DNA of 62,928 nt, counting the filler, from Dirinaria sp. TL-2023a (taxonomy: Eukaryota), in NCBI GenBank assembly GCA_051941275.1. It is 21 parts of 21 records of this genome, joined end to end, with 100 filler letters (N's around TTAATTAATTAA, not from the genome) between each part and the next. Parts side by side here need not be neighbours in the genome. Positions count along the whole stretch, not along the records: positions 33,133 to 36,031 come from JAVEBF010002169.1; positions 36,132 to 39,029 come from JAVEBF010002170.1; 19 more parts are not named here. One strand, 5' to 3'. Positions within the stretch are counted from its first letter, which is position 1. Each line of letters begins with the position of its first letter. Made by a program: the position numbers and the translations under genes. The notes under the pieces were generated by a model. The model ran no database searches and was not told where the DNA came from. It saw only the letters and a list, made by a program, of their open reading frames with translations. Positions 2,929 to 62,928 of this stretch are shown piece after piece.

Positions 2929-3028
2929 NNNNNNNNNNNNNNNNNNNNNNNNNNNNNNNNNNNNNNNNNNNNTTAATTAATTAANNNNNNNNNNNNNNNN
3001 NNNNNNNNNNNNNNNNNNNNNNNNNNNN
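2929..3028. other. Artificial contig spacer N44-TTAATTAATTAA-N44 (first of 20; others start at 5955, 8971, 11984, 14996, 18007, 21017, 24024, 27030, 30032, 33033, 36032, 39030, 42027, 45020, 48009, 50997, 53984, 56970, 59952)
   Basis: An identical 100-bp unit recurs about every 3 kb. The palindromic core gives stop codons in all six frames, and the intervening contig lengths decrease monotonically, indicating size-sorted concatenation. Confidence 0.99.
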
Positions 3029-33132: not shown

Positions 33133-35155
33133 AGTTTATAAACGATTTCACGATTAGAAATAAAATTATTTGATAAAATATAATAAAATCTTCACGTTAA
33201 AAGAGTAACTGAGTAAAATTGACAATTGATTGATAGAAATATTATTAAAAAAGATAGCAACAATTGAACAAACGAATTATTCTATTTATATCATTCAAAC
33301 TCATCGTTATTTAAACTGTTTTTCATGTCGATTGATTCGTTCAGTAAATCGTTCAAATCATAAAATGTGTTTGTTGATTGTGAGATCTAAGAATTGAGAT
33401 TATCGTTTGAATTATATCGCGTTTTGTATTTGTTGTACTTCTTTTTTAAAACATCTCAATACATCTCGCGTCAAGAAAACTCACTCGATTTCACATCTCA
33501 ATTTTTAAAAAATTGATCTCTCATCGACGACTGCAATAATATCGTTTTGTCATATATAAAACTCAAAACGTTTTGAGTTTTGCTATAATATTAACGAAAT
33601 TTTTGATTCGCGACGTCAATAATTAATCGCATCTCGTTTTTTCACGAAATTTTTTTATTTCTCAGACGATTTCGAGAATCATTCAATTTGTCGAATATTG
33701 AGATGTAAATTTTAAAAACGTTCTGAATCGTGAGTTTTTTAGTATTGCTCAAAATTTTGATGAATAAACAAAAAGATTTGACGATGTCAATCAAATAAAG
33801 TACTCGACGTGTTTTCATTTCTCTCTCGAAAATTTGAGATAATCGCTCGCGTGGGTATCAAAGAACTGATTTAAATCAACTCGTAATTTGTGAGCACAAA
33901 TTAACATGTGACAAATTGAGTTTCAGCGATTTTTGACATTTTAAAACAATTTGAGCGATCGAGTTTTAATTAGTTTGATTCGATCAATCTTAAACTCAGC
34001 GTTTCGTCGCTCTGTTTTAATGCGCTTCGTTTAAATGACGAAGAATAATTTTTTACGCTGTTTACTAATATTGATATAGACTGCAGTTTTGCGCATTTGC
34101 AAAATTTGTTATTATTTGAGTTTCGATCAATATAAAGATTAATACAAATAATTTTATTTTCGTTAATGTCATGAATAAATTTTTAAGTTTAGCGACGTTC
34201 GATTTATTCGTTGCTTCGTCTCAATTTTTCTGAAATTTATCATTGATAAGAGTGACACGTACGCGTTTTAATAGCGTTTTAAATGTCAATTGTAATACAT
34301 GCGTTAGACAAAAAACGTGTTGTGTGCATATCTCATTCTCATTTGTTTCGATATTTCTCGAATGATTTTTTTCGTTCTCGTTAGATTAATTATCGTCAAC
34401 ATTTTAACGATCGATATCGTTCGAATTCTCAGAAAATAAAAAATCGTAATTTATGTAATTTAAGAAACTTTTCATAAAAGTGTTATTGTTACTCGCGTTA
34501 TCAATGATCATCGCGAGAACTTTTCTGAAAATGTTCTGAGAAATCAGAACTCGTCGAATTATCTCTGTCATTCTCATTTCATCGTCAAGAATATTTTCGT
34601 GTTATCTGAAAAAAGATGTTGTAATAAATTTTTTTTTATTTTCGACAGTTTTTTTATGATATGATTCTTAATTGTAAAAGCGTTAAACAATTTAACATTG
34701 AGATTCAGACAGCGCAAAATGCGAAAAAATTTCACATATTTTATTATTCGAAACGATAAATCGTAGATCATAATTCAGCGTTTAAACTGATAATCGAAAT
34801 TCGTTTTATCTAATTATTTGTCATGTAAAATCACATCTTGATTTTAATAAAAATTTGTATTAGTTTGTGATTTGATAAACGAGAGACTAAAATTTCTTAT
34901 TACGTGATAATAAAAAAAGATTTTTAGTAATCTTTTTAATAATAAAAGTTCGATCAGATTTTAAAAAAATTATGCGCAGAATTTATTTTTTTATTCAACG
35001 AGTCTCGAAAAGGCAACTGACTCAAATCTCGAGAATTAGTCTCGTTTTTACAAGTTTGAATTTTGAGATGATCTATCATATGAGAGATGTCAATTTTTAA
35101 ACTAAAATGTTTTAAATTTTTGTCGCAACAAGTGCATACAACGCGAGAATAATCG
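33133..35155 (-). pseudogene. Hypermutated hAT-family DNA transposase relic
   Basis: The minus strand retains degenerate hAT motifs in the expected order: ISHMIDHLKIQTC (BED-like, about 35050-35095), AMIIDNASNNN (about 34480-34515), HVFCLTHVLQL (CxxH, about 34285-34320) and NVKNR*NS (DVxxRWNS, about 33915-33940). The DNA is very AT-rich and nearly lacks CC/GG. Confidence 0.82.
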
Positions 35156-36031
35156 TTTTTTTTTTTTTTTAATTCTTACTCGATTCAACATCCACAAGGG
35201 ATCTATGCGAGATCTATATACTTATATCGGCGGCGCGTCAGCGCTGCGTCGACTCTTTTCTTGTTACGTGCAGTTTTCTCTATTCATAATATGAGAAAAT
35301 CCTTCATGCGAGGACTTTATGAGTCTAAGAATTCGAAGAAAAAGCAATCGTCTGAAACTGACTGAGTAAATCAGTGAATAAAATCATGCGTATCGTCGCT
35401 GTGATATCAACGACGTTATCGAGCAGTTTTCTCACATCTGTAATATTATTCGCTTTTCGTTGCATCTTTAGTCTCTTCTGTCTTCACGTGAGACACGTTA
35501 ATAGCACGTGTCTGATTGTCATGCGATCTTGTTCGCAGTCGCAAATTTTTGTAATCATTTTAAAGACGAGTCGCTCGTTTAAAAATTGATTGAAATTTAT
35601 TTTACTCGTTCTCAGTTGTGTAAACAAAACGTTGTGTGATTTTGTTCGATCATCGTGAAATCGCATATGACGCTGAGTTATCGTAGACGTCAACGCGCGA
35701 TAATGAGCTTCGTTGATGTTTTTTTTTTCATTTTCTTCGTCATTTTGCGCGAGTTTATTCTTGAATCAGCGCTGTTTTGACAGCAGATTCACACGTCAAA
35801 TGATCGAGCAGCGAATGATTGTGTGTCTCGTTGATTATTTTATTCGTTTCTTTATTGTTTTTTATTTCTTTGTGATCGAGTATTCAGTGAAGTTTGAGTG
35901 AAGTTTTTTTTTCTCGTATCGTCTCGCACGCGCTTTGTATGCGTCGTAAAGATGATTGATCTGTTGTCGAGATCATTGTGTGTATCATTTTTAGTGAGAT
36001 TTGACTGTCTGAGTAAGCTTTATACACTCTG
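35156..36031 (-). mobile_element. Hypermutated 3' end of a Tad-like LINE (RNase H, C-terminal Cys/His knuckle, 3' UTR, poly(A))
   Basis: Translation LFTQLRTSKINFNQFL...CDCEQDRMTIRHVLLTC, with an A15 tail on the minus strand at 35156-35170. Positions 35672-36031 align to the intact copy at 39029-38670. Confidence 0.88.
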
Positions 36032-38634
36032 NNNNNNNNNNNNNNNNNNNNNNNNNNNNNNNNNNNNNNNNNNNNTTAATTAATTAANNNNNNNNNNNNN
36101 NNNNNNNNNNNNNNNNNNNNNNNNNNNNNNNACCGTCCACAATTTATCAACAGTTGAGCTCCAGACGAAGATGGAGAATGGGGCAAGTGAGGTAGGTATG
36201 AAGTCATCGGTTTCCCCTCGACCGGAATTAGGCGATAAGCGTAGGAATGCAGACGGGCCAATAGTTGTGCCGTGAGACTGACCAATCGACAGGGAGCAAT
36301 GTTGCGGTACCTACACGCTCCTGTCATGGGACGACCTGTACATGGAAGGTGAGCTTTACACATGTGTCATGATGATGAGGATGGCCAGAGTATCTAGAAC
36401 GTACCGAAGCTGTGCTAGGTATGTAACTAGGGAAGGTCCTGTACAGTGGATCTAAGGCAGCACGACAACGGCTATAACATTCTGCAAGTAGGCACACCTC
36501 CTCATGTTGTTAGAGACAGAATCTAACCACTAGAATTGGATCAAGACATCCTTCCGCCTGCTTAGACAGCATGCACAGCTTACGGACCATGATTTTTCTG
36601 CATGCACTATGATGAGTAAGAATGTACTGACCCTGCTTGGCGATTTTCGGCCCCATTGAAGATCAATTTTCCTTGTGCCAATGGCAGTGCTATTGGTATC
36701 GAACATCTCACTATGGTATCGATCTTAAGCAAAGAGAGTGTCCCAGAATGCCTCTTCCATTTGCTCTTTTTCCTGTAAAGGGTGAAGAGCGCAGTCATCC
36801 AGATTACGACCAGAACTCGATCAAAATCCAGAAAGATGAGTTCAGTCGCCGTTTTTGATAACCGGGAGCACGGTTTCGCTTGAATAGTCTTGCTTGTTAG
36901 GAGCCAAATGTAGAAAGCCGATCCGAAGCGGTTCGGACGGCATTCACCGCGTCTCATATGGACCTCCGTTCTCCATTTCAAAACGGCAAGGGCAAGATGT
37001 AAGATCAAGGATGTCTAGGAGGCGTCAGTGCCGTTGTGCCGGTTACTGATATGTGCCCCACAATCGGACATAAGAAAAAGTGAGCCTGTCAAGTAAGATT
37101 GCCCCCTTGGCTCATCTGCAATAATTTCGCTGAGCGGGAATATCCCATAATAATGGCATCACTGAGCAGGCCAGCCAACCTACAGCGCCAATATATCATC
37201 CTTGGAACCTTCTTCCGCTCTATCTTATCTTAGCTTCAGTAAGGTAGATTCAAGTCCACGGCCCAGGGCAGACTACGATCGCCCTACTTAAGCTTAGCCC
37301 TAATCGAATCACGTGCGGCTAACACTCTACAACCTTTCGCCAAAGACAGCCTTATCGCAAGCTTGAACATATATGAGTCAGGGTCAGGATTTGAGCTACC
37401 CTACTGAAATCTACCAGACCAGAGTATGCAATCCTTGAAGAACTGAATTACAGAAAAAAAAAAGCAAAAGCTCATGTTCCAAAATTAAACTTGAGAACTC
37501 GGGCCAATAACAAGCCCTCTCGACCATTACCATAGCTTCATTGGAGTGATTTTAGATCATGTATTCTAACTATGTCGGACTCTCTACACGTAGATACAGA
37601 ACCCGAACGTCACCTGCCACTCTACCAAAATAAATATCTCCCCTGCAAATCGAACAATACCTACTAATCATAAAGAAAATAGCTACATCGCTTCCTTCAT
37701 CCACCAATGAATTTCCATCTCCATTCCCTCCTCACCTTTTAATTTTCCAAGAGATCTTCTCGTTACACGCTCACAATAAAATGTACTGAGTGATATCGCA
37801 TTCCGGAGATTGGGCAGAAGCTCGGTTCAGGAGAGAAGCATCCCTGAACCAAAATCCACGTTTAGTATACGCTCTTCCCTAGTACCAGAAAGGCCAAAAA
37901 GCTGCAGCAGCTCACATCTCTATCTCGGTATATCTTAAATAACCTTCTAGAATCGCGCTGGTACTTGTCTTATTATATTAACCACCCATTAAAAGTAATT
38001 CGGCGAGAAAAATTCCCATTTACTTCCCCCTTTTTTTTTTTCCCAAAAAAGAGATGAACTCTACACAACATGCCTAATCCAATCCAATCCAAATCCAATC
38101 ATCCTAAACCCTCCTCCCCTATTACTCAATACTCATATCTCTCCTCCAGCGCAGCGCAGTAAAGCCAGCCAGGCATGAAATCAAACTGCGCATGATCCCA
38201 GGAATAATACCGTTTCTTTTTTTTGGTTGCATTTCATAAAATCGATTCATCGCTTATTCAAACATCCAATCCCTACTTCCTTAGAACCTTCCTTCTGGGT
38301 ATTGACACACACGCTTTCTCTATCAAGTGACAGAATCGAAATCACTCATGATTTTATGGTTGATTAATGCATGCATGACTTACACTGTCCAAAATCAAAA
38401 ATGTCGCTTTACCCACTTTTATTATCATGACTCACTCCCACGCGCGACCTACTTCAGCCACCCAAAAATCCCTGCCGTGCAATATCTGAAATGAAGCTAC
38501 TTCTAAATAGGTCTAGGACCTAGAACATCCAACAGACTCCAGCCCATCGATTCTTCAAATACAAGTCATAACCGCAAATTCATGAACATAAAAAAGAAAA
38601 AAGATTCATACAAAAAAACCAATCACTTTTCTTC

Positions 38635-39029
38635 GGCAGCTCACTGCGAAAGAAGTGACAACTGCGTAGGCAGGGTGTATAGGGTTTACTCAGACAGCCA
38701 AGCCTCACTAAAGGTGGTACACACAATGACCTCGACAACAGATCAGCCACGTCTACGACGCATACAGAGCGCGTGCGAGGCGATACGAGAAAAGGGAGCT
38801 TCACTCGAACTTCACTGGATACCCGGCCACAAAGGAATAAGAGGCAATGAAGAAGCGGATAGAGTAGTCAACGAGACACACAAATATTCGCTGCCCGATC
38901 AACTGACGTGTGAACCTGCTGCCAGAGCAGCGCTGATTCAAGAACAAGCCCGCGCAGAATGGCGAAGAAAGTGGAAAGAAGGCACCAACGGAGCTCACTA
39001 TCGCGCGTTGGCGCCTACGGTAACTCAGC
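38635..39029 (+). mobile_element. Unmutated (open) RNase H segment of the same LINE family, apparently 5'-truncated
   Basis: VYSDSQASLK...LHWIPGHKGIRGNEEADR are RNase H motifs of non-LTR elements. The sequence upstream of about 38635 is A-rich and non-coding. Confidence 0.88.
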
Positions 39030-39129
39030 NNNNNNNNNNNNNNNNNNNNNNNNNNNNNNNNNNNNNNNNNNNNTTAATTAATTAANNNNNNNNNNNNNNN
39101 NNNNNNNNNNNNNNNNNNNNNNNNNNNNN

Positions 39130-45119: not shown

Positions 45120-47252
45120 GGAGAGGGTGCGCAAACAGGTAAGAGCAATGTGCTTATGGGCATCATTGGGACTTATGTCTATTGTAGGATTACTCGTTGA
45201 CCGAATGTAATCGCGGATGCTGTTGTGGTTGATGCTTATCTTGGTTGTCCAAAGATCGGAGTCGAAGATGAGTCGATTGTCCTGCTCATCATCAGATGAC
45301 GTCGATGATACATCGCTTATTTCGTTCCCTGTAGCTCGCAAGTCATGGGAATCACCAGTCATTGGACTCTGTACAGCCATACGGCGTAGGTCCTCTGTGG
45401 TTTTACCGTCTTCCCGGTCAAGTACAAACAAAGACCGGTATTCCTCTCGCAAATACGATTCCAGGCCTGGAAGTCCTTCGCCAACCGGTTCCTTGAGTTC
45501 CAGCAAAAGTTTCATTTCGCCCAAATAGAGTTCACGGGTTGCGAATGTTGACCATATCAGCATCTCTCTCAAGTCATTGCCGCTGCTTGAATTCCTGATC
45601 AATCGTTCGATAATGGTCTCCAGAAGCTGGAAAACCCTCGGTGGGCTTGCCAATAACCTTTCGATGTCGCTCACTCGAGGCTGATCTACGATTTCTTCAA
45701 GCATGAGCCTTGCCCAAAGAAACATGCCGGCAGCTCCTTCTTTAAGCCTTTCTACTATCAGGCTTTTGAGGGCATTGCGCTCATCTTTTGCTTTATGCCG
45801 CAAAAGCTTTACTCTTTTGATGTTCTTCTCAATATATTTCACCACGTCGTTCGACATCTTTGTCGCGGAAATCTCAACATATGGAGGCGGGTTTCTTGGC
45901 CATTGGTCGGTGATCTCTGGTCGACCAAGGATCAGGAACTGGAGCCTGCAAGTATTCTGGTACCCCTTCCCGCGTAGATCTTTCATCAGTCCAAGAAGAA
46001 TCTTTTGCTGCTCGATGGGGGCTTCATCAACCCCATCAATGATGACTCTCGCACTGCCATGAAATTTTTCCACGAAGAAATAGTCGCTGAAAAGATTCTT
46101 CCACGTATCCTCGGCTATACGTATCCGCCTCTGATCCTTGCAGACCATAGCGGCAAAACTCTCATACTCACTATCCAGGTGGGCTAGTTGAAACGCAATA
46201 CATTTGAGCAAATTATTGACCGAGCAAGTCGAACTGTTGTCATTCTTGATGTAGAAGTAAGCCACGCTCTGGGTTGGAAGTTTGCGGCTTTCAAGTTCGT
46301 CGATAATTCTGGTCGAGAGAAACGATTTCCCAACCCCTCCTGCTCCCAGCATCCAGAGAAATGCTGACCTTTCTTCAGACCACTCCTCGACCAACGGGTC
46401 ATCAAATATCCAATCACCAGTGGCCCGGGTTCTATCTCTACCAATGGACTTATAAATCTCGTACATCCGGTTGGCGAGTTCTTCGCCGAGCACTGTACTC
46501 ATATGCTGACTGTGTGCTCTTGACTCACTTTCTCTCTTAGATTGGCCAACCTGGACGCTGATATCTTCAACCATCTTCTCCGTACGCTGTGTGGTTTTTT
46601 CCACGCGCTGTGTGGAGCTGTAGTTCAAAGCGGACACCAAACGAGCCTCATCGTCCGATAATCGTTCCAGGTCTTTCAAAAGATTCTGCAGCTTTTCATC
46701 TTTTCCAAGAAACGCAACTCGGAAATACTCCTGCGCTCTAGGACGTCTTGCTAATTTTTCCGTTCGCGCAAGGATTTCGAGAACCTTGCACATAGTTTCT
46801 GTCACAAGCCTGCCCAGTTCCTCGTCAATGGTCTCTTCAGTGTATTGCTTGAAACGCTGCGTGGCGGTTGCTATCCGGGCCAGAAGATCCTCCACAGCAT
46901 CGTATGCGTCCGAAACACCCTTTGCGGCATTCACAAGGTGAAGAATAGCGCCGAGTGCGGCACTCGCAGGTAGAATCTGAGCTCCTCCGAGAACATCTTG
47001 TGCCAGTCCGCCTACCAGCTGGATCGGCATCCAAGCTGCTGAGATCGCTTTCCATAATCTCGCGTGGCGTTCTCTGAAATCGGTAAATCCTTGATTGGAC
47101 TGCTTGATCCTGCTGTGCAAGTCGTCTAAGGTTTTGAGATCACGAGCACTGGCATCGGACGACAGATCGCGTCCCGTCCGATCTTTGTATTTATCGAGGG
47201 CACTGGCCCACAGGCTTGCGAACTGTACGTTGTGATCAAGCTTTGCAGCCAT
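45120..47252 (-). CDS. Fungal NLR: Goodbye-like N-terminal domain + NACHT NTPase, 3' truncated
   Basis: FASLWASALDKYKDRTGRDL...FTDFRERH, TGDWI, Walker A LWMLGAGGVGKS, Walker B VIIDGVDE, GMFLWARLML and NHNSIRDY in an intronless ORF of more than 700 aa. Confidence 0.92.
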
Positions 47253-48425: not shown

Positions 48426-49229
48426 GGTTGTTGTTGTTGTGTTGTATGCTTGTGGGGTAGAGGGGAAAGAGTCTGTGGTGGGAGGGAGGGTTTTTGTTAG
48501 TGGTGTTTGGATTGAGGAGGGAGAGGGGATCTTGTACCGTCTGCTTAGGCGGATTGATGTATGGAGGTACGCCTGCGATTGAGAGAGGTTGCGGTTGACG
48601 TATTTAGGTGATGAGGGTGGGTTTTAGAGTATCAAAAAGGCATCCTGTGCGGTGCCAAGAAATAGAAGGCTGCCCTAGCCGCATCCTCCATCGGGCCGAG
48701 GGTGAGCGCCGCTTTAACCTCGGACTCACTGGGGACTATGTTCTGGATAGGACTTGTCATGTCCGAATCTATCGCTTTTAAGGTAGAAGTCCTTTGTGTG
48801 CTGAGCCCTAACACGCGCCCGCTAGCACGACGCTAGTCCGGTTGGAATAGCACAGAGCTTACTACCAACCCCTTACCATAGCTGATCCAGTGACCACGAG
48901 AATAATGCAAGATCCTGACGCGATATTATCATTACACGCCGCGTAGATCGAGCATTGACAAAAAACTTCTAGGGTTCTAGATATTGCAAGACCTCACAAT
49001 TGACTCTGGGGCTACCGAGAAATGAAACCGCCACACCTTATATATCCTGTTGGGACCTTTATATAATCATGTATGGGCACTGACAATGAGTAGATATGAT
49101 CCTGATAAAAGCCTGGTATATCGCACATAACACGAACATGTGATGGTTAGGTGTTGTCAGCAATCGAACCCAATATTCGCATTTACAGCACCTTGGTCTC
49201 TCGAAGTCAACTACCTGCTCCAGGCACTC

Positions 49230-50430
49230 CTTATCATTTTTCAATCATCTGAGTTACTATGTCTACCATTATTGACTTGGATGCTGTATCTCCTGCCACA
49301 ACTTGACCCCTAACACCTTCACCACCTGTCACGCCTTCTGGATCTCATTTTGCTTTTCAATCATCTCCTCAAATACCTCTTGAGATTTTATTCCAAGCAG
49401 TTGGAATGCATTTGGTGCAAGAGATAAATCCTATATGCTTACTCTTGGTTCTCGCAATCGTTAAGTTAATTTTGTTATCTTCGCTGCCGCCGCGCATCAG
49501 CTCATTTACTCAGAATTAGCTCATGAAACAGGTCTTCTCTGCTGTGCTGGCACTATACAAAAAATTTTACAACCCAATTGCCAATTGGTCCGTATTGCAT
49601 TCCGATAAGTACGGATTTGCGAGACTAATGTGTTTGCGAAAACCGAGTACATGTAGAGTCATTTGCATAGTGCGAGCAGAGCAGAGAAGACCTGTTTCGT
49701 GGGCCAATTCTGAATAGGTGAGCTGACGCGCGGCGGCAGAGAAGACAACTAAGTTGACTGAACGATTGCGAGAATTTGAAGTAAGTATATGCGATATATC
49801 TTTTCTAGGTTGAGGTGTTTTTGACTCAGTGCGTACGCGATGCACGGTGCTAACATGATAACCCATTGTATGTGCAATGCAACGAATGAAGGCATTACGA
49901 ATTGTTGTGAAATGGATTTTTTTGTCGCATTGCACATATAATAGGTGATCATGTTTGCACCGTGCATCGCATATACATTGAGCGAGAAACACCTCAACAT
50001 GGAAGAGGTAAATTCCATCCCGCGACGGTTCGCAATACCTTCATAGCAATCCAGGTTTCTTAGGTCATCCTAGACTCTTGAAGCGATGCCACGGTATCGG
50101 TTTCGTTGACAGGCACAGGAAGTTTGGGAATACGGTCGCTTAAAGAAGTCGGCGGCAGTGCTGTGAGTTACTCGAACTTAACCTCAGTTGGGGCAAGTGA
50201 GTGAACTTCATCTGACTGCATTTGCAATTGAGCTTCAATTGCCTCCAAGCGCATTCCAATTGCTTGGAATGTGGTCTCAAGGGGGGGTTTGGGGAGGAAA
50301 TTCAAACGCAAAGAGAAAGTCAGGAGGTGCGACAGGTGGTGAAGATGCTGGGGACCAAGTTGTGGCAGAAGATGCAGCATCGAAAGCGATGATGGCAGTT
50401 ATAGTGAGTCATGTGATCGAAAAGTGATAA
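49230..50430 (-). pseudogene. Rearranged relics of a Tc1/mariner-like transposase 5' region
   Basis: Minus strand: ETWIAMKVLRTVAGW...IAHTMGYHVSTVHRV (HTH)...RQLTYSELA...CSARTMQMTLHVLGFRKHISLANPYLS (second HTH region). A diverged inverted copy lies at 49230-49570. Confidence 0.62.
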
Positions 50431-52162
50431 CGATTGCTTGAGATAGATGATCTAAAACTTCATCGTGCAGGAGCCATGCCAGTATACCTGGATGCAGATC
50501 CACACACTTTCGGCCCCTAACAGTGGCCTGAGTACATACCCGGTCATGTGAGGGTGTTCTACAAGCCTCATGCTAATGGATGGTGTGAAGAGATTATGTG
50601 CGCCGGGAACGATTGCATCCTCGATCCTAAGTGATGCCCCTAATGGAGTGAAGCTGCGATATCGGCTGAAACGCACCAACCAGGTATTTGGATTCCTACA
50701 TCCCGAGTCATGACACTTGGAAGCTGGACAATAATAATAAAGTAAGCAGTAAAAGCAATTAAAAGAACGGACGCACGACCAAGCAGGGGAAAGCGAATCC
50801 AATGGAGAGAGAAATGTATAGAGATCCACCACTGCAATCCTCTTGAAGTGCAAAAGATGTATATAGATACCAAAGGGCCTCTCCCACCCCAAGAACAAAA
50901 AGTCCCCCTAATCCAAGCAAAGACAATCAAAATATACTTTTTCCCTCTTCGATCTTCACCCCTCCTCCCCCTCGCGGCCGCAGTCTCCTCTTACACNNNN
51001 NNNNNNNNNNNNNNNNNNNNNNNNNNNNNNNNNNNNNNNNTTAATTAATTAANNNNNNNNNNNNNNNNNNNNNNNNNNNNNNNNNNNNNNNNNNNNGGAA
51101 CGAGGGAAGAGTGCAGTGGGAGGGAATTTGGGGATGGGGGTTATTTTTTGTTTGGTGGTGGTTAAGTAAGTAAGTAGGTAAGGTAAGTAAGTAATAAGGT
51201 AACGGAGAGATCGTTTGGGTGCGTTTGGGTGGAAAGACAACACAGGAAGGAATTTGCGGGATGGGATCATGGGAGGCACCGAAGAGGCTAAGGCAGTAGG
51301 CACAGCGTACAGGCTACAAGGGCCCCTCCGAGTGCCTCACATGCAGTACCGGGTCCAGCTAGCGGCTCGAGTTTAACCTACTTTTACTCGGCTGCTTAGC
51401 AGTACGGTAGGCACCTTGATGGCCTGAGGCACACCCAACTCTAAGTCACAAGTCACAAGTCACAAGTGGCTCTCCCCCTTCACTGTGGCGTTAGGTAACT
51501 TAGGTTCCTTACCAAATACTCTAGCAACAACTCTATCCTCCACACACCTTACCTTACCTGCTCACCTTACATAAGTACAGTACCTTTCCTTCTGCTGTAC
51601 ATCGACGGATGAATAATACCTTAATAATCTCCTTTAGGTAAAAGGTAGGTATCTTACATACATGTCTTGTAGATCATTAATATCGACTCAAATTGACTAT
51701 TTTTTCTCAAATCACTGAAACCCGCAAGGATCATGTACGTACATGTATGTTCTACGGAAACCTTGTAACCCCCCTGTTAGATGGATACTGTACCTTAGAT
51801 TAGATGCCTCTGGAAAGTACATGATGGTGGGATTTGAGAGGCTGCACTGGATTATTGCGCTCAGGGATTCCATTTGAGAGTAGCTCTTCCCCGAGAACGC
51901 TATTTGAACCTTATTCCCCAGGTCGGCGACCGGCCTAAGAGTACATGGACTTTACAGTACTACTACGGCACGATGTTCTATGATGGCTGCTGCTTCGACG
52001 TCGAGCTTCTTCCCAATTCGACTGCTTGGTGCGATGCTAACAGAACCATTGACGCCGAAATAGAATAATATGTTCAGTAAAGATTCCTCCCATACGCCTG
52101 CCTTCATTGAGCTCATTTACAATGTCCCATGTGTCGAACAGCTTGTCTCGTCCTCCAGAGCT

Positions 52163-54693: not shown

Positions 54694-54990
54694 TGAGGTG
54701 AAGGACCTCGTTCAAGGGAGCTGCGTAGTAGAAACGAAGCTACAGACGAGGCACAGACACATCGCGTGAACGCGGACGACGACTCTTGCTAATAAGTGCG
54801 AGAAACAAAAGAGCAGATTGCTTCTATTGCTAAGACTAATAACTAAGAAGCTCAAAAGAAATGAGCGACTCGTTTCTTCATTCAAATACGCTTGCTTTCT
54901 CTTTATTATCTTGACTTCTGAATTCGATCTCGCACTAGACTTTATCGAAACGCTCTAAACGAGATTGACGTGACTTTAACTCGCGCTTCA
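54694..54990 (+). mobile_element. LTR-like repeat of about 297 bp, copy 1
   Basis: TGAGG/TGAAG...CTTCA termini. It is a direct repeat of 56700-56969, differing mostly by transitions. Confidence 0.75.
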
Positions 54991-56699: not shown

Positions 56700-56969
56700 T
56701 GAGGTGAAGGACCTCGTTCAGAGGAGCTGCGTAGTAGAAGCGAAGCTACAGACGAGACACAGACACATCGCGTGAACGCGGACGACGATTCTTGCTAATG
56801 AGTGCGAGGGACAAAAGAGCAGATTGCTTCTATTGCTAAGACTAATAACTGAGAAGATCAAAAGAAATGAGCGACTCGCTTCTTCATTCAAATACGCTTG
56901 CTCTCTCTTTGCTATCTTGATCTCTAAATTCGATCTCGCGCTAGACTCTATCGAAACGCTCGAGACGAG
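56700..56969 (+). mobile_element. LTR-like repeat, copy 2 (cut by the contig end)
   Basis: Colinear with 54694-54963. Confidence 0.75.
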
Positions 56970-60051: not shown

Positions 60052-61890
60052 CGAAACTTACTCTCATAATTCTTTTCATTCATCTCATAACTCAATGAAT
60101 TAAAACAATTAATCGAGTTTTTCTCGATGTATTTGATCTCTGACTGTATCACGACGATAAAAAATCGCAATCGAAGAGAATAAAATCGAAAAAAAAACTC
60201 GTAAAGACGTTTTACAACGATCACGAGATTTTCGATGAAAAGAAAAAAAAAAAGTCATCGTGTTGATTATCACAATTTCTCACATTTGAAATAAGAGACA
60301 CGATCTCAAAAATTTTACAGCGTGACGAACGAAAAAACTAAAAAGAAAATATATTTTAGATCGAAACATTTTTGACGAAATCTGAAAAACAAATCTCAAC
60401 GATCTGTTTAGAAATATTATTATAAATGAGACTCATTTCGTTAAAAACATAAACGCAGACATATCTAAAATCATTTAATGACTGAGACTCGATCATTATA
60501 TACTGATGACAGAGATTTCGATTTTTAACAACGTAAAGAACGTACTCGAGTACTTGAATCTGTTATAAAATTCAGCGAGCGAGAATTGATGAACATTTGA
60601 ATATTTGAAAAAGATTGAACTAAACGAGAATATTAATCTTTTTGAGCTGTTTTTTGATCATTTCGAAATCAAGTTGATTCTAATTATAAAAATCGCTAAA
60701 TCTTAAATTACGATCGACAAAATGAACAATGTGACTAAAAATCGAAATCTGAAACGAATATATTTTCACTGCATGCTACGCAAAACGCATGTCTTTAAAA
60801 ATTTTTTTCATTTCGTTCGCATCATCGAAAAATATTTTTCTCGAATTCAATACGTATAAATCAATTGTCACATGACTCAGAAAAAGCTGACGAACTATAA
60901 ACAGATAGAAAACAACGCTTTAGAGTCTTTGATTGTCAATACGTCAGACAAAAAATTTCGATGATTCTTTAAAACGCAACGAATTCTCAGCATGACGACT
61001 ATATGAAATGATCTGAATGTCATAAAAAAACGAAATCACGATCTCAAAACATTCATCACGCAACAGTGATTGAAATGCGACAACGTGTTTATGAAATGAG
61101 TTTCTCTTTTGCACTCAAAGATTAAATTATCATGAGAAATTTCTCATTATTTTCTCATGTTATCGAAAGACTCGCTCAAGTTTAAAACATTTTTTAGTAA
61201 TGTGCGAAATTAGATAAACATAATTATTTGTGAAAATCTTTCACGAAAGCATTTAACAATTTTTTATCAAATTATAAAAGACAAACAGAAAATTACTGTC
61301 TGATGTCTCATCTCAGCGATATTAATATTTTTTGACGTCGTTTTACGCAGAGCTCTTAAACTAGAAATTGAGATTATACACTCGAGTATGACTCACAAAA
61401 AACGAATCGACGTTCAAAAATTGTTTAACGAGAACGAGAAAAAGATTATGATTTCAATCGCGATTTATGAGACGACGAAAATTGAGTACAATTTTCAATT
61501 CAAATGTTGACACGTTCATTTTTTTGAAAATTGTTTTAGTCAATCAATCGAAGATCAAATTTTATGTCGTACATGACGATTGAGCAATCTCAGAGACGTT
61601 GTCAGAATTTACGTTTATTTCGTTTCATTAATCTATGATGATAAAAAAATATTTCGAAATTTGAACAAAATTATGCTCGAAATCGTCGTTTATCTGAGTC
61701 GCGATTTTATCACTGCGAAAGAGAACGACACATGTGTTATGAATATTGAGCAATGAGCATGACACGACGACGAACTCGTCGATTGCAAAGATTCAAAATA
61801 CAAACATTTTCATCTCATTTCTCTATTTCTCGAGGAACTGATACGTTTTATTCTACGACAACAACGAGATGAGATAATCGAGATAAAATG
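60052..61890 (+). pseudogene. Hypermutated SNF2-family helicase/ATPase gene
   Basis: One frame carries IIINETHFVKN (motif II DEAH, about 60416-60448), ILMTEISIFN (motif III TGTP, about 60500-60530), IEYNFQ (motif V GxNLQ, 61481-61498) and QILCRT*RLSN (motif VI, about 61556-61590). Each deviation can be reverted by C>T or G>A. Confidence 0.82.
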
Positions 61891-62214
61891 AGAAAATGAC
61901 AATGATCGATGAGAAAAGCGATGTAATTTTTATTAAATCAGAATTTGCTGTGATCAAGAAACGTCGATAGAATTTATGCATGCACTGTAATCGCAGCATT
62001 TCGTACGTGAGAATATTTTTTCTCTCATGTTAGATCGTTTCTTCTCAAATATTCGTTCGTAAATAGCTTTTTTTGTCAGAATCATGTTTTACACTGAAGT
62101 AATCATCATCATGATGTATTCACAAGCACACATTTATCAATGAGTAAATCTCGAAAAATCGATCAATTGAATGTTTTTATTTGATCGAATCAAACTAGCT
62201 ACGACTCGAACGAT

Positions 62215-62493
62215 TTGAATGTCTCAATAATTTCTCGTTCTCGATCGATCGATGCATTTAGTCACGACACGCACGATTTGAATATTTTAACAGTTTATCG
62301 TTCTCGATCGTTCGATGCACTTAGCTACGACACTGATAATTTGAATGTCTCAACAGTTTATCGTTCTCGATCGTTCGATGCATTCAGTTACGACATTGAT
62401 GATTTGAATATCTCAACAGTCTATCGTTCTCGATCGTTCGATACATTCAACTACGACACTGATGATTTTAATGTCTCAACAGTTTATCGTTCG
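62215..62493 (+). repeat. 63-bp tandem repeat, about 4.4 copies
   Basis: Units start at 62215, 62278, 62341, 62404 and 62467 (TTGAATGTCTCAACAGTTTATCGTTCTCGATCGTTCGATGCA...). Confidence 0.93.
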
Positions 62494-62928
62494 TGTTACG
62501 AGCCTGGCTCTCACTGTTGTTACCCGGGTCATTTTCTACAAGGTTTTTGTGTATAGTGTTGAGCTTTGACCTGATCGAGATTAGCGCATTCGGAGTGATG
62601 ATCGGTTCGATCGATCAGAGTCCAACGCTCACACATCCATATTATGCCTGATTCCAGTTCATAGATTTCTTTTCTTCTTCATGCTTTGTGTATTTAGTTG
62701 ATAGCATCTGCATAGATCATATCTTCTGCATCGGTCCTGACATTACACAAAGCATCAAACCCCTTATCTCGTTTTGCAATTATACGAGTTTCAAACAATC
62801 GCAACAATATCTGTACTATCATCTACAATTGAACTAAACATTGTTGTTTACACATTTTATCTTTTGCTCTCGTTGCTTCGCGAGATAATAAGAAAGAAGT
62901 ACGATTTGATTGATGATATCAGCAATGA
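62494..62928 (+). mobile_element. LTR retrotransposon 5' end: about 249-bp LTR (62494-62742), self-priming PBS and leader
   Basis: TGTTA...TGACA termini, interrupting the fifth 63-bp unit. TACACAAAGCAT (62744-62755) is the exact reverse complement of ATGCTTTGTGTA (62681-62692). Confidence 0.8.

Follow-up and report, generated by a model that had tools for sequence, protein, structure and literature searches.

Probable RIP-like hypermutation with a CpC preference in transposable-element-like DNA of a putative Lecanoromycetidae-type fungus

What process has removed nearly every CC and GG dinucleotide from certain repeat-bearing contigs of Dirinaria sp. TL-2023a (assembly GCA_051941275.1), while sparing CpG and most CpA? 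The DNA analysed here (the window) comprises 21 fungal contigs of 2,877-2,928 bp in descending order of size, 62,928 bases in total, joined by linkers of the form N44-TTAATTAATTAA-N44 (for example, at 2929-3028, 36032-36131, and 39030-39129). Because the window is built from separate contigs, nearness of features across contigs carries no meaning. The fungal process that invites comparison is repeat-induced point mutation (RIP), which turns C:G pairs into T:A pairs in repeated DNA. The favored reading, held at a probability of about 0.68, is that DNA derived from transposable elements (TEs) in a Lecanoromycetidae-type fungus undergoes RIP-like hypermutation with the target order CpC >> CpT >> CpA = CpG.

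Two copies of one long interspersed nuclear element (LINE) carry much of the argument. The unmutated copy, from the second open reading frame (ORF2) of a retrotransposon without long terminal repeats (non-LTR), includes the RNase H domain and sequence downstream; it occupies the plus strand at 38670..39029, the end of contig 13, and its open frame runs off the contig. The hypermutated copy of the same segment lies on the minus strand at 35672..36031, the end of contig 12, and is 82.5% identical (blastn). Their overlap is 360 bp because both copies stop at contig ends, a limit set by the assembly; the mutated ORF2 can be followed on the contig 12 minus strand to about 35493, in the region of the C-terminal Cys/His motif. 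The intact fragment matches Pfam RNase_H (E=2.6e-6; frame 3, residues 847-914) and is 68% identical to P0279, a protein of 949 residues in which RVT_1 (240-494) is followed by RNase_H (707-837), with no integrase match. This arrangement supports assignment to the LINEs. A protein-atlas comparison agrees, both for the RNase H likeness of this fragment and for the SNF2 likeness of the contig 21 pseudogene described below. (The intact fragment was also used to scan JGI metagenome contigs; of the four loci returned, three have 27-33% identity and the fourth matches over 20 residues at 65%, and none was used.)

Global alignment of the two copies reveals 62 substitutions and one 1-base gap. Read from the contig 13 copy, which its sequence marks as the ancestral-like one, the substitutions are G>A (40), C>T (17), T>C (2), A>T (2), and G>C (1). 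Thus, 59 of 62 are transitions, and 57 of 62 are C>T or G>A changes toward the AT-rich copy. Cytosines of the intact copy, with both strands folded together, were then sorted by neighboring base. Sorted by 3' neighbor, the mutated fraction is 30/35 for CC (0.86), 23/53 for CT (0.43), 2/49 for CA (0.04), and 2/52 for CG (0.04). The four contexts differ strongly (chi-square p=4e-19), as do cytosines followed by pyrimidines versus purines (Fisher p=2e-18) and CC versus CT (p=6e-5). Expressed as hits per site, CpC:CpT:CpA:CpG is about 47:14:1:1, and the 4% rate at CA and CG hardly exceeds the background of other changes. Sorted by 5' neighbor, the rates are indistinguishable (0.28, 0.31, 0.30, and 0.31). 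CC sites are mutated on both strands, 12/15 on the plus and 18/20 on the minus strand. The preliminary description of this window had named an intact and a destroyed LINE copy on opposite strands, and had placed the changes at CC and CT with CpG and most CpA spared. Its coordinates for the pair stand, and the RNase_H and P0279 results uphold its LINE call; polarizing C>T in this pair by all four 3' neighbors, as it had proposed, leaves CpC and then CpT dominant rather than CpA or CpG, and the excess of transitions over transversions is equally clear.

The same loss is visible at the protein level. Local alignment of contig 12 with the C-terminus of P0279 finds none of six Gly and none of three Pro residues kept, together with five of six His and both Gln.

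A second aligned pair comes from contig 19, where direct, LTR-like repeats of 270 bp (54694-54963 and 56700-56969) are 92% identical. Transitions account for 19 of their 21 differences, and the context in the C-bearing copy is CT in 11 cases, CC in 3, CA in 4, and CG in 1. This agrees with the signature, in a small sample whose two copies had both lost CC beforehand. The contig otherwise yields a weak Chromo match only (E=0.0016).

How far does the depletion extend? With expected counts derived from base composition, CC+GG is observed 10 times versus 135.6 expected in the contig 12 block (33133..36031; GC content 0.31), once (at 61834) versus 120.5 in the contig 21 block (60052..62502), and 50 times versus 232.6 in contig 19 (54084..56969; GC content 0.40), a less advanced block. 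The last 577 bp of contig 1 (2352..2928) also are CC/GG-poor, with 5 versus 33.6. Control contig 13 contains 297 versus 301.5 expected, an observed/expected ratio (O/E) of 0.98-1.0, and symmetric CC/GG O/E is 0.90-1.11 in the 15 contigs other than 1, 3, 12, 13, 19, and 21. Both strands are depleted, since CC and GG each are near zero in contigs 12, 19, and 21; contig 12, for example, with 422 C and 464 G, has 2 CC and 8 GG. The contig 21 block ends sharply between 62502 and 62503, with 19 CC/GG in 62503-62928 and normal density from 62503 onward. The depletion of these three repeat contigs had been noticed in the preliminary description, and the CC/GG counts that it called for bear it out against the normal control. 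It had ended the contig 21 block at 62493, however; the block is real, but its end is 62502.

Other dinucleotides fit together with this loss. The product, TC/GA, is raised in the three AT-rich contigs (O/E 1.4-1.56), and in the two blocks where the process has gone furthest CT/AG is reduced (O/E 0.72-0.81). CA remains at about 1.0 and TA does not rise (O/E 0.55-0.61). CG reaches 1.5-2.4, an over-representation that arises because C and G around CG are lost, and TCG in the hypermutated blocks reaches 3.4. Retention of CpA and CpG cytosines explains why the blocks still have 31-40% GC. One further feature of 33133-36031 and 60052-62502 is that CTC is enriched (O/E 1.97), with CTA at 0.31 and CTT at 0.50 versus 0.60 and 1.21 in control contigs. 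Either CpT is a better target before A or T, or CCC>CTC intermediates pile up.

These properties defeat the classical RIP indices, since CA stays near 1.0 and TA is not raised. According to the RIPCAL paper, RIP is indicated by TpA/ApT of at least 0.89 and by (CpA+TpG)/(ApC+GpT) of no more than 1.03. In the three AT-rich contigs, the first index is 0.54-0.65, below its threshold; the second is 1.11-1.23, above its ceiling; and the composite index is negative (-0.46 to -0.69). The earlier expectation that CpA-based indices would under-call such DNA thus is borne out for this window.

Polarity can be examined independently in an SNF2-like helicase pseudogene on contig 21 (60053..61702, plus strand), which has weak Pfam SNF2-rel_dom and Helicase_C matches. 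It carries many mutations, all of them point changes, and its frame is kept over 500 codons. Searching with phmmer against representatives of 50%-identity clusters returned 144 matches (best E=2e-25), including one alignment that spans residues 52-549. Bacidia gigantensis, a Lecanoromycete, supplies the best intact homologue, P0121; another intact cluster is from Microsporum. For an outgroup comparison, the pseudogene was aligned with 25 intact homologues, and columns with at least 60% consensus were scored. None of 13 conserved Gly residues is kept (Asp or Glu 8, Asn or Lys 2, Ser 2, Cys 1), nor is any of 10 conserved Pro residues (Leu 4, Ser 3, Phe 2, Lys 1). All seven conserved Trp codons have become TGA, and no TGG is left. 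Conserved His is kept in 4/4 cases, and 6/9 conserved Arg codons still are CGN. The in-frame stops number 16 TGA, 7 TAA, and 1 TAG. CpC/CpT-specific C>T change on both strands predicts GGN>GAN/AAN, CCN>TCN/TTN/CTN, and TGG>TGA, and this is the pattern found. CpA-type RIP instead predicts CAA/CAG>stop, CAY>TAY, ATG>ATA, and TGY>TAY, which does not match. The domain searches made found no retroelement domain in this element. Its family, as seen in homologues P0121, P0122, and P0135, is multi-copy and repeatedly hypermutated; it may be an undescribed mobile element or a duplication-prone gene family.

Relatives of this pseudogene indicate that the signature is not private to the four contigs of the window. 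Among the 144 matches, 25 (70-495 residues) have no Gly or Pro at all; Gly+Pro is below 1% in 35, and is normal, at least 7%, in 99. Pooled, the 35 low-Gly/Pro homologues (8,045 residues) contain 0.1% G, 0.0% P, 2.2% W, 3.9% Q, 2.9% H, and 5.5% R, the last four shares being close to those of the intact set. Conserved columns were counted in the 18 longest. Gly is kept in 1 of 145 cells (Asp 48, Glu 41, Lys 13, Asn 12, Arg 9, Ser 7) and Pro in 0 of 97 (Ser 57, Phe 19, Leu 8). His is kept in 32/39, Arg in 62/77 (Lys 11), and Met in 16/16; Cys>Tyr is never seen. "Trp" stands in 60 of 74 cells, and because TGG itself contains GG, "Trp" in a Gly/Pro-free reading frame presumably is TGA read as Trp. 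These "proteins", which include P0123, P0126, P0128, P0131, P0133, P0134, P0136-P0139, and P0141, probably are pseudogenes in CC/GG-free fungal DNA, called as open reading frames by reading TGA as Trp. Ten Gly/Pro-free homologues were looked up, and all come from ENA metagenome assemblies, on contigs of 3-82 kb. A word-indexed protein search with P0134 recovered itself and one relative. A scan of JGI metagenome contigs, with aligned Gly/Pro-free SNF2 homologues as the query, yielded 51 matches to the pattern, none of them a relative.

What mechanism could produce this pattern? The starting points are the demonstrated mutation spectrum and its context, outgroup polarity, two-strandedness, confinement to TE-derived blocks, and presence in further public assemblies. 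The blocks themselves appear TE-like, given the LINE ORF2, the multi-copy SNF2-like element, and the LTR-like repeat pair. The process would act on both strands of double-stranded genomic DNA, would make only C:G>T:A transitions, and would stop at sharp block borders. Its targets would be chosen by the 3' neighbor of C, in the order CpC >> CpT >> CpA = CpG. Since the 3' neighbor decides and the 5' neighbor is irrelevant, as in the grammar of RIP, a RIP-like mutator triggered by homology or heterochromatin, with a changed flanking-base pocket, is thought most likely. Repetition (or heterochromatin) would be the trigger, as in RIP, and the mutator would be a DNA-methyltransferase-like enzyme of the RID/DIM-2 type with altered flanking-base preference. 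RID and DIM-2 homologues are described from the Lecanoromycete Cladonia rangiformis in the accessible text of PMC12542154; RID, DIM-2, and DIM-5 genes are absent from the 62-kb window. Because the working is RIP-like and the CpA-based defining features fail, the process is classed as a context variant of RIP-like hypermutation.

Such a process would drive CC/GG dinucleotides to extinction. Gly codons would become Asp, Glu, Asn, or Lys codons; Pro codons would become Ser, Phe, or Leu codons; and TGG>TGA would be the sole one-step stop available to a CpC/CpT spectrum. CpG-rich runs would survive, along with Gln, His, and CGN-Arg codons.

Several observations weigh against this reading. In the LINE pair, CpT sites are hit unequally on the two strands (20/35 versus 3/18, p=0.008), and on the LINE sense strand there is an excess of G>A over C>T of 40:17, both of which also are compatible with some editing of complementary DNA (cDNA). 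Along the pair, the types of mutation do not cluster (runs-test z=0.04); strand-coordinated events should do so, although near-saturation could mask it. On contig 13, the assembly also contains a copy of this LINE that is unmutated. RIP in other Lecanoromycetes has been found through low GC or RIPper, so a CpC context is not a rule for the whole class. If the assembly is metagenomic, moreover, the AT-rich contigs and the gene contigs are not proven to share one organism. Finally, the DNA aligned directly amounts to one 360-bp and one 270-bp pair, the remainder being composition and protein-level inference.

The strand asymmetries lead to the first alternative, in which an APOBEC-like enzyme edits retroelement cDNA during reverse transcription rather than resident genomic DNA. 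APOBEC selects by the 5' neighbor, on single-stranded cDNA. The comparison with APOBEC3 G>A hypermutation is apt insofar as transitions inactivate retroelements and the LINE pair shows some sense-strand G>A excess. Here, however, selection is by the 3' neighbor and affects both strands: plus-strand CC also is near saturation (12/15), and every block has lost GG as fully as CC. The SNF2-like element, for which the searches made found no retroelement domain, is affected too; the LTR-like pair gathered the same kind of differences between its copies; and one block border cuts through a contig. cDNA editing therefore is very improbable. An equally slim chance attaches to the idea that the AT-rich contigs are contaminant DNA natively poor in CC/GG, or an artefact of sequencing or assembly. 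Fragmentation of the assembly is high (contigs of 2.9 kb), and a lichen is a mixed community, but the mutated sequences are frame-preserving gene copies, and where they have changed, their intact relatives have Gly, Pro, and Trp. Intact and mutated copies of one LINE coexist; homologues with the same lack of Gly and Pro are present in other public assemblies, on contigs up to 82 kb; and the best intact SNF2 homologue comes from Bacidia gigantensis. Four other candidates were rejected. Ultraviolet C>T change needs a 5' pyrimidine and would ignore block borders; it was set aside by reasoning, as the LINE pair shows no 5' effect and the block border is sharp. Decay of 5-methylcytosine at CpG fails because only 2/52 CG sites are mutated and CG O/E is 1.5-2.4; TCG-type hypermutation fails because TCG O/E is 3.4; and a mitochondrial origin fails because the blocks carry LINE ORF2 and an SNF2 pseudogene.

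The remaining alternatives keep the repeat restriction and change the chemistry. An enzyme unrelated to RID/DIM-2, such as an AID/APOBEC-like or bacterial-toxin-type double-stranded DNA deaminase, might act at heterochromatic TEs. The context reverses the RID-linked patterns of published papers, as far as their accessible text describes them; TpA shows no gain; and saturation at one dinucleotide, with roughly 50-fold discrimination, suggests a tight active-site pocket. The known AID/APOBEC-like and toxin-type DNA deaminases nevertheless select by the 5' neighbor (TC, CC). The 5' neighbor is without effect in the LINE pair, and no such gene is seen within the 62-kb window, so this explanation is unlikely. 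A new double-stranded DNA deaminase outside the DNA methyltransferase (DNMT) family still is the milder departure from the RIP-like reading, and likelier than the next. In that explanation, the primary lesion lies on guanine: an O6-alkylguanine-type mark at 5'-purine-G-3', enzymatic or left by an alkylating metabolite, would go unrepaired in heterochromatic repeats and be fixed as G>A. C>T at CpC and CpT matches precisely the context of mutational signature 11 for single-base substitutions (SBS11), left by temozolomide, and the order GG>GA over AG>AA, with pyrimidine-G spared, fits as well. The accessible text of PMC12556801 reports SBS11 context reproduced in vitro through O6-methylguanine and replicative polymerases. 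Since O6-methylguanine gives the same dinucleotide context, context by itself does not prove that cytosine is attacked, and the altered cytosine-methyltransferase recognition put forward in the preliminary description is a candidate reading. The likeness ends at distribution: SBS11 reflects genome-wide chemistry in treated human tumours, whereas the changes here are confined to fungal TE blocks and saturated. Chemical alkylation would act genome-wide, yet the contig 21 block ends sharply at 62502/62503, and neighboring sequence and gene contigs have normal CC/GG. CC loss is 119 of 120 expected, with CpA and CpG near background, and such discrimination may exceed chemistry alone. Block restriction and the roughly 50-fold discrimination favor an enzyme over free chemistry. 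No enzyme is known to O6-alkylate DNA for genome defence. A guanine lesion thus is improbable, and no less improbable is its bolder form, a guanine-marking enzyme, rather than a RID-type cytosine methyltransferase or deaminase, that serves as a repeat-targeted alkylation defence with a temozolomide-like CpC/CpT signature.

Returning to RIP-like hypermutation, how does it compare with known systems? Like RIP in Neurospora crassa (RID; DIM-2/DIM-5), it involves only C:G>T:A changes, on both strands, in repeat or TE DNA that is driven AT-rich within sharp limits. In both cases, the 3' neighbor of C decides and the 5' neighbor hardly matters; the triplet analysis of Mazur and Gladyshev, in the accessible text of preprint 10.1101/344036, calls the third base of NCA/CAN "relatively unimportant". 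In Neurospora, however, CpA "stands out" according to the same preprint, whereas CpC is the best target here, so the preference is inverted. Moreover, TpA is not gained, change at CpA and CpG remains at the background level, and both Margolin-type indices fail. CpA-type RIP turns CAA and CAG into stops, whereas the only one-step stop here is TGG>TGA. Strictly defined, RIP also depends on duplication, takes place in the sexual cycle before meiosis, and needs RID and/or DIM-2 with DIM-5. The favored dinucleotide of TE-directed C>T change is known to differ among fungi: the accessible text of the RIPCAL paper gives a CpG bias for Microbotryum violaceum Ty1 repeats and CpG plus CpA for the Aspergillus nidulans MATE element. 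Those variants consume CpG, but in this window CpG is spared, 1.5-2.4 times over-represented, with TCG O/E at 3.4.

Closer relatives are informative as well. RIP has been reported for Cladonia rangiformis (PMC12542154) and Xanthoria (bioRxiv 10.1101/2025.11.25.690456) through GC content or RIPper, as their accessible text tells. These fungi belong to the same class and have TE-derived AT-rich compartments with sharp borders, in which LINE/Tad1 and Ty3 elements are affected. Unlike the Cladonia RIP regions, which that text puts at 10-20% GC, the blocks here have 31-40%. In their accessible portions, the lichen-fungus papers derive RIP from GC or RIPper, or describe AT-rich regions that resist binning, and give no dinucleotide context.

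More broadly, the accessible text of several papers (PMC12543289, PMC2621366, PMC5555474, and PMC3897900) describes RIP as preferring CpA. CpT figures there as a target that is second in rank or in dispute for Neurospora, Magnaporthe, and Stagonospora, and CpC only among several dinucleotides whose frequency declines together with CpA. A 2025 survey of 1,239 species states, in its accessible part, that RIP-like defences "share a preference for CpA"; no Lecanoromycetes appear there among the 130 strong cases. Literature searches located neither a case of RIP dominated by CpC nor any analysis of context from alignments for Lecanoromycetes; most subscription journals and supplements lay outside their scope, so an earlier mention is possible.

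CpC as the favored target conflicts with the survey's generalization, and it makes substrate choice by the RIP machinery a testable question. The signature offers an experimental handle: what sets that preference, or does another enzyme act? There are practical consequences too. Scanners based on TpA/ApT or a RIPper-type composite would score these blocks as not RIPped; reports of RIP in lichen fungi therefore may be too few, and binning may misplace AT-rich mycobiont DNA. With TGA as the only one-step stop, hypermutated pseudogenes can pass as long open reading frames if TGA is read as Trp. Gly/Pro-free "proteins" of up to 495 residues already stand in public catalogues, and filtering for sequences that lack Gly and Pro would expose this artefact and chart the signature's spread through metagenomes. 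CpG-rich runs that survive in dead repeats could matter for methylation and heterochromatin formation.

Which organism does the DNA represent? The host is a Lecanoromycetidae-type fungus, presumably lichen-forming, to judge from its gene contigs. One of these encodes a PNS1/choline-transporter-like exon whose best named matches (57-67% identity) are in Lecanoromycetes such as Imshaugia, Lecanora, Cladonia, and Letrouitia; other matches reach 74-78%. A quick single-gene tree places the exon inside a Lecanorales+Teloschistales clade with a Shimodaira-Hasegawa-like approximate likelihood-ratio (SH-aLRT) support of 100, and within a five-row group, also with support of 100. Gene contigs of the window also encode a 2-hydroxyacid dehydrogenase and, at 45120-47252 on the minus strand, a NOD-like receptor (NLR) of the Goodbye-NACHT type.

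Two further repeats in the window were not used as evidence. Contig 17, of normal composition, has nested inverted repeats or a palindrome at 49221-50440 (about 200-390 bp, 73-75% identity), which show mixed transitions and transversions and no CpC bias. Tandem repeats of about 126 bp, with copies 86% identical, lie at 62196-62492 on the inner edge of the contig 21 block, before the border at 62503; their substitutions are mixed, with no CpC signal.

Contig 1 holds the N-terminal domain of an NWD-type NACHT NLR on the minus strand at 1-1011 (NACHT_N, E=4e-31, then the start of NPHP3_N), spread over two frames and running off the contig. Taken whole, this contig is mildly low in CC/GG (O/E 0.57; GC content 0.40), which might reflect light hypermutation of a paralogous NLR gene, or composition alone.

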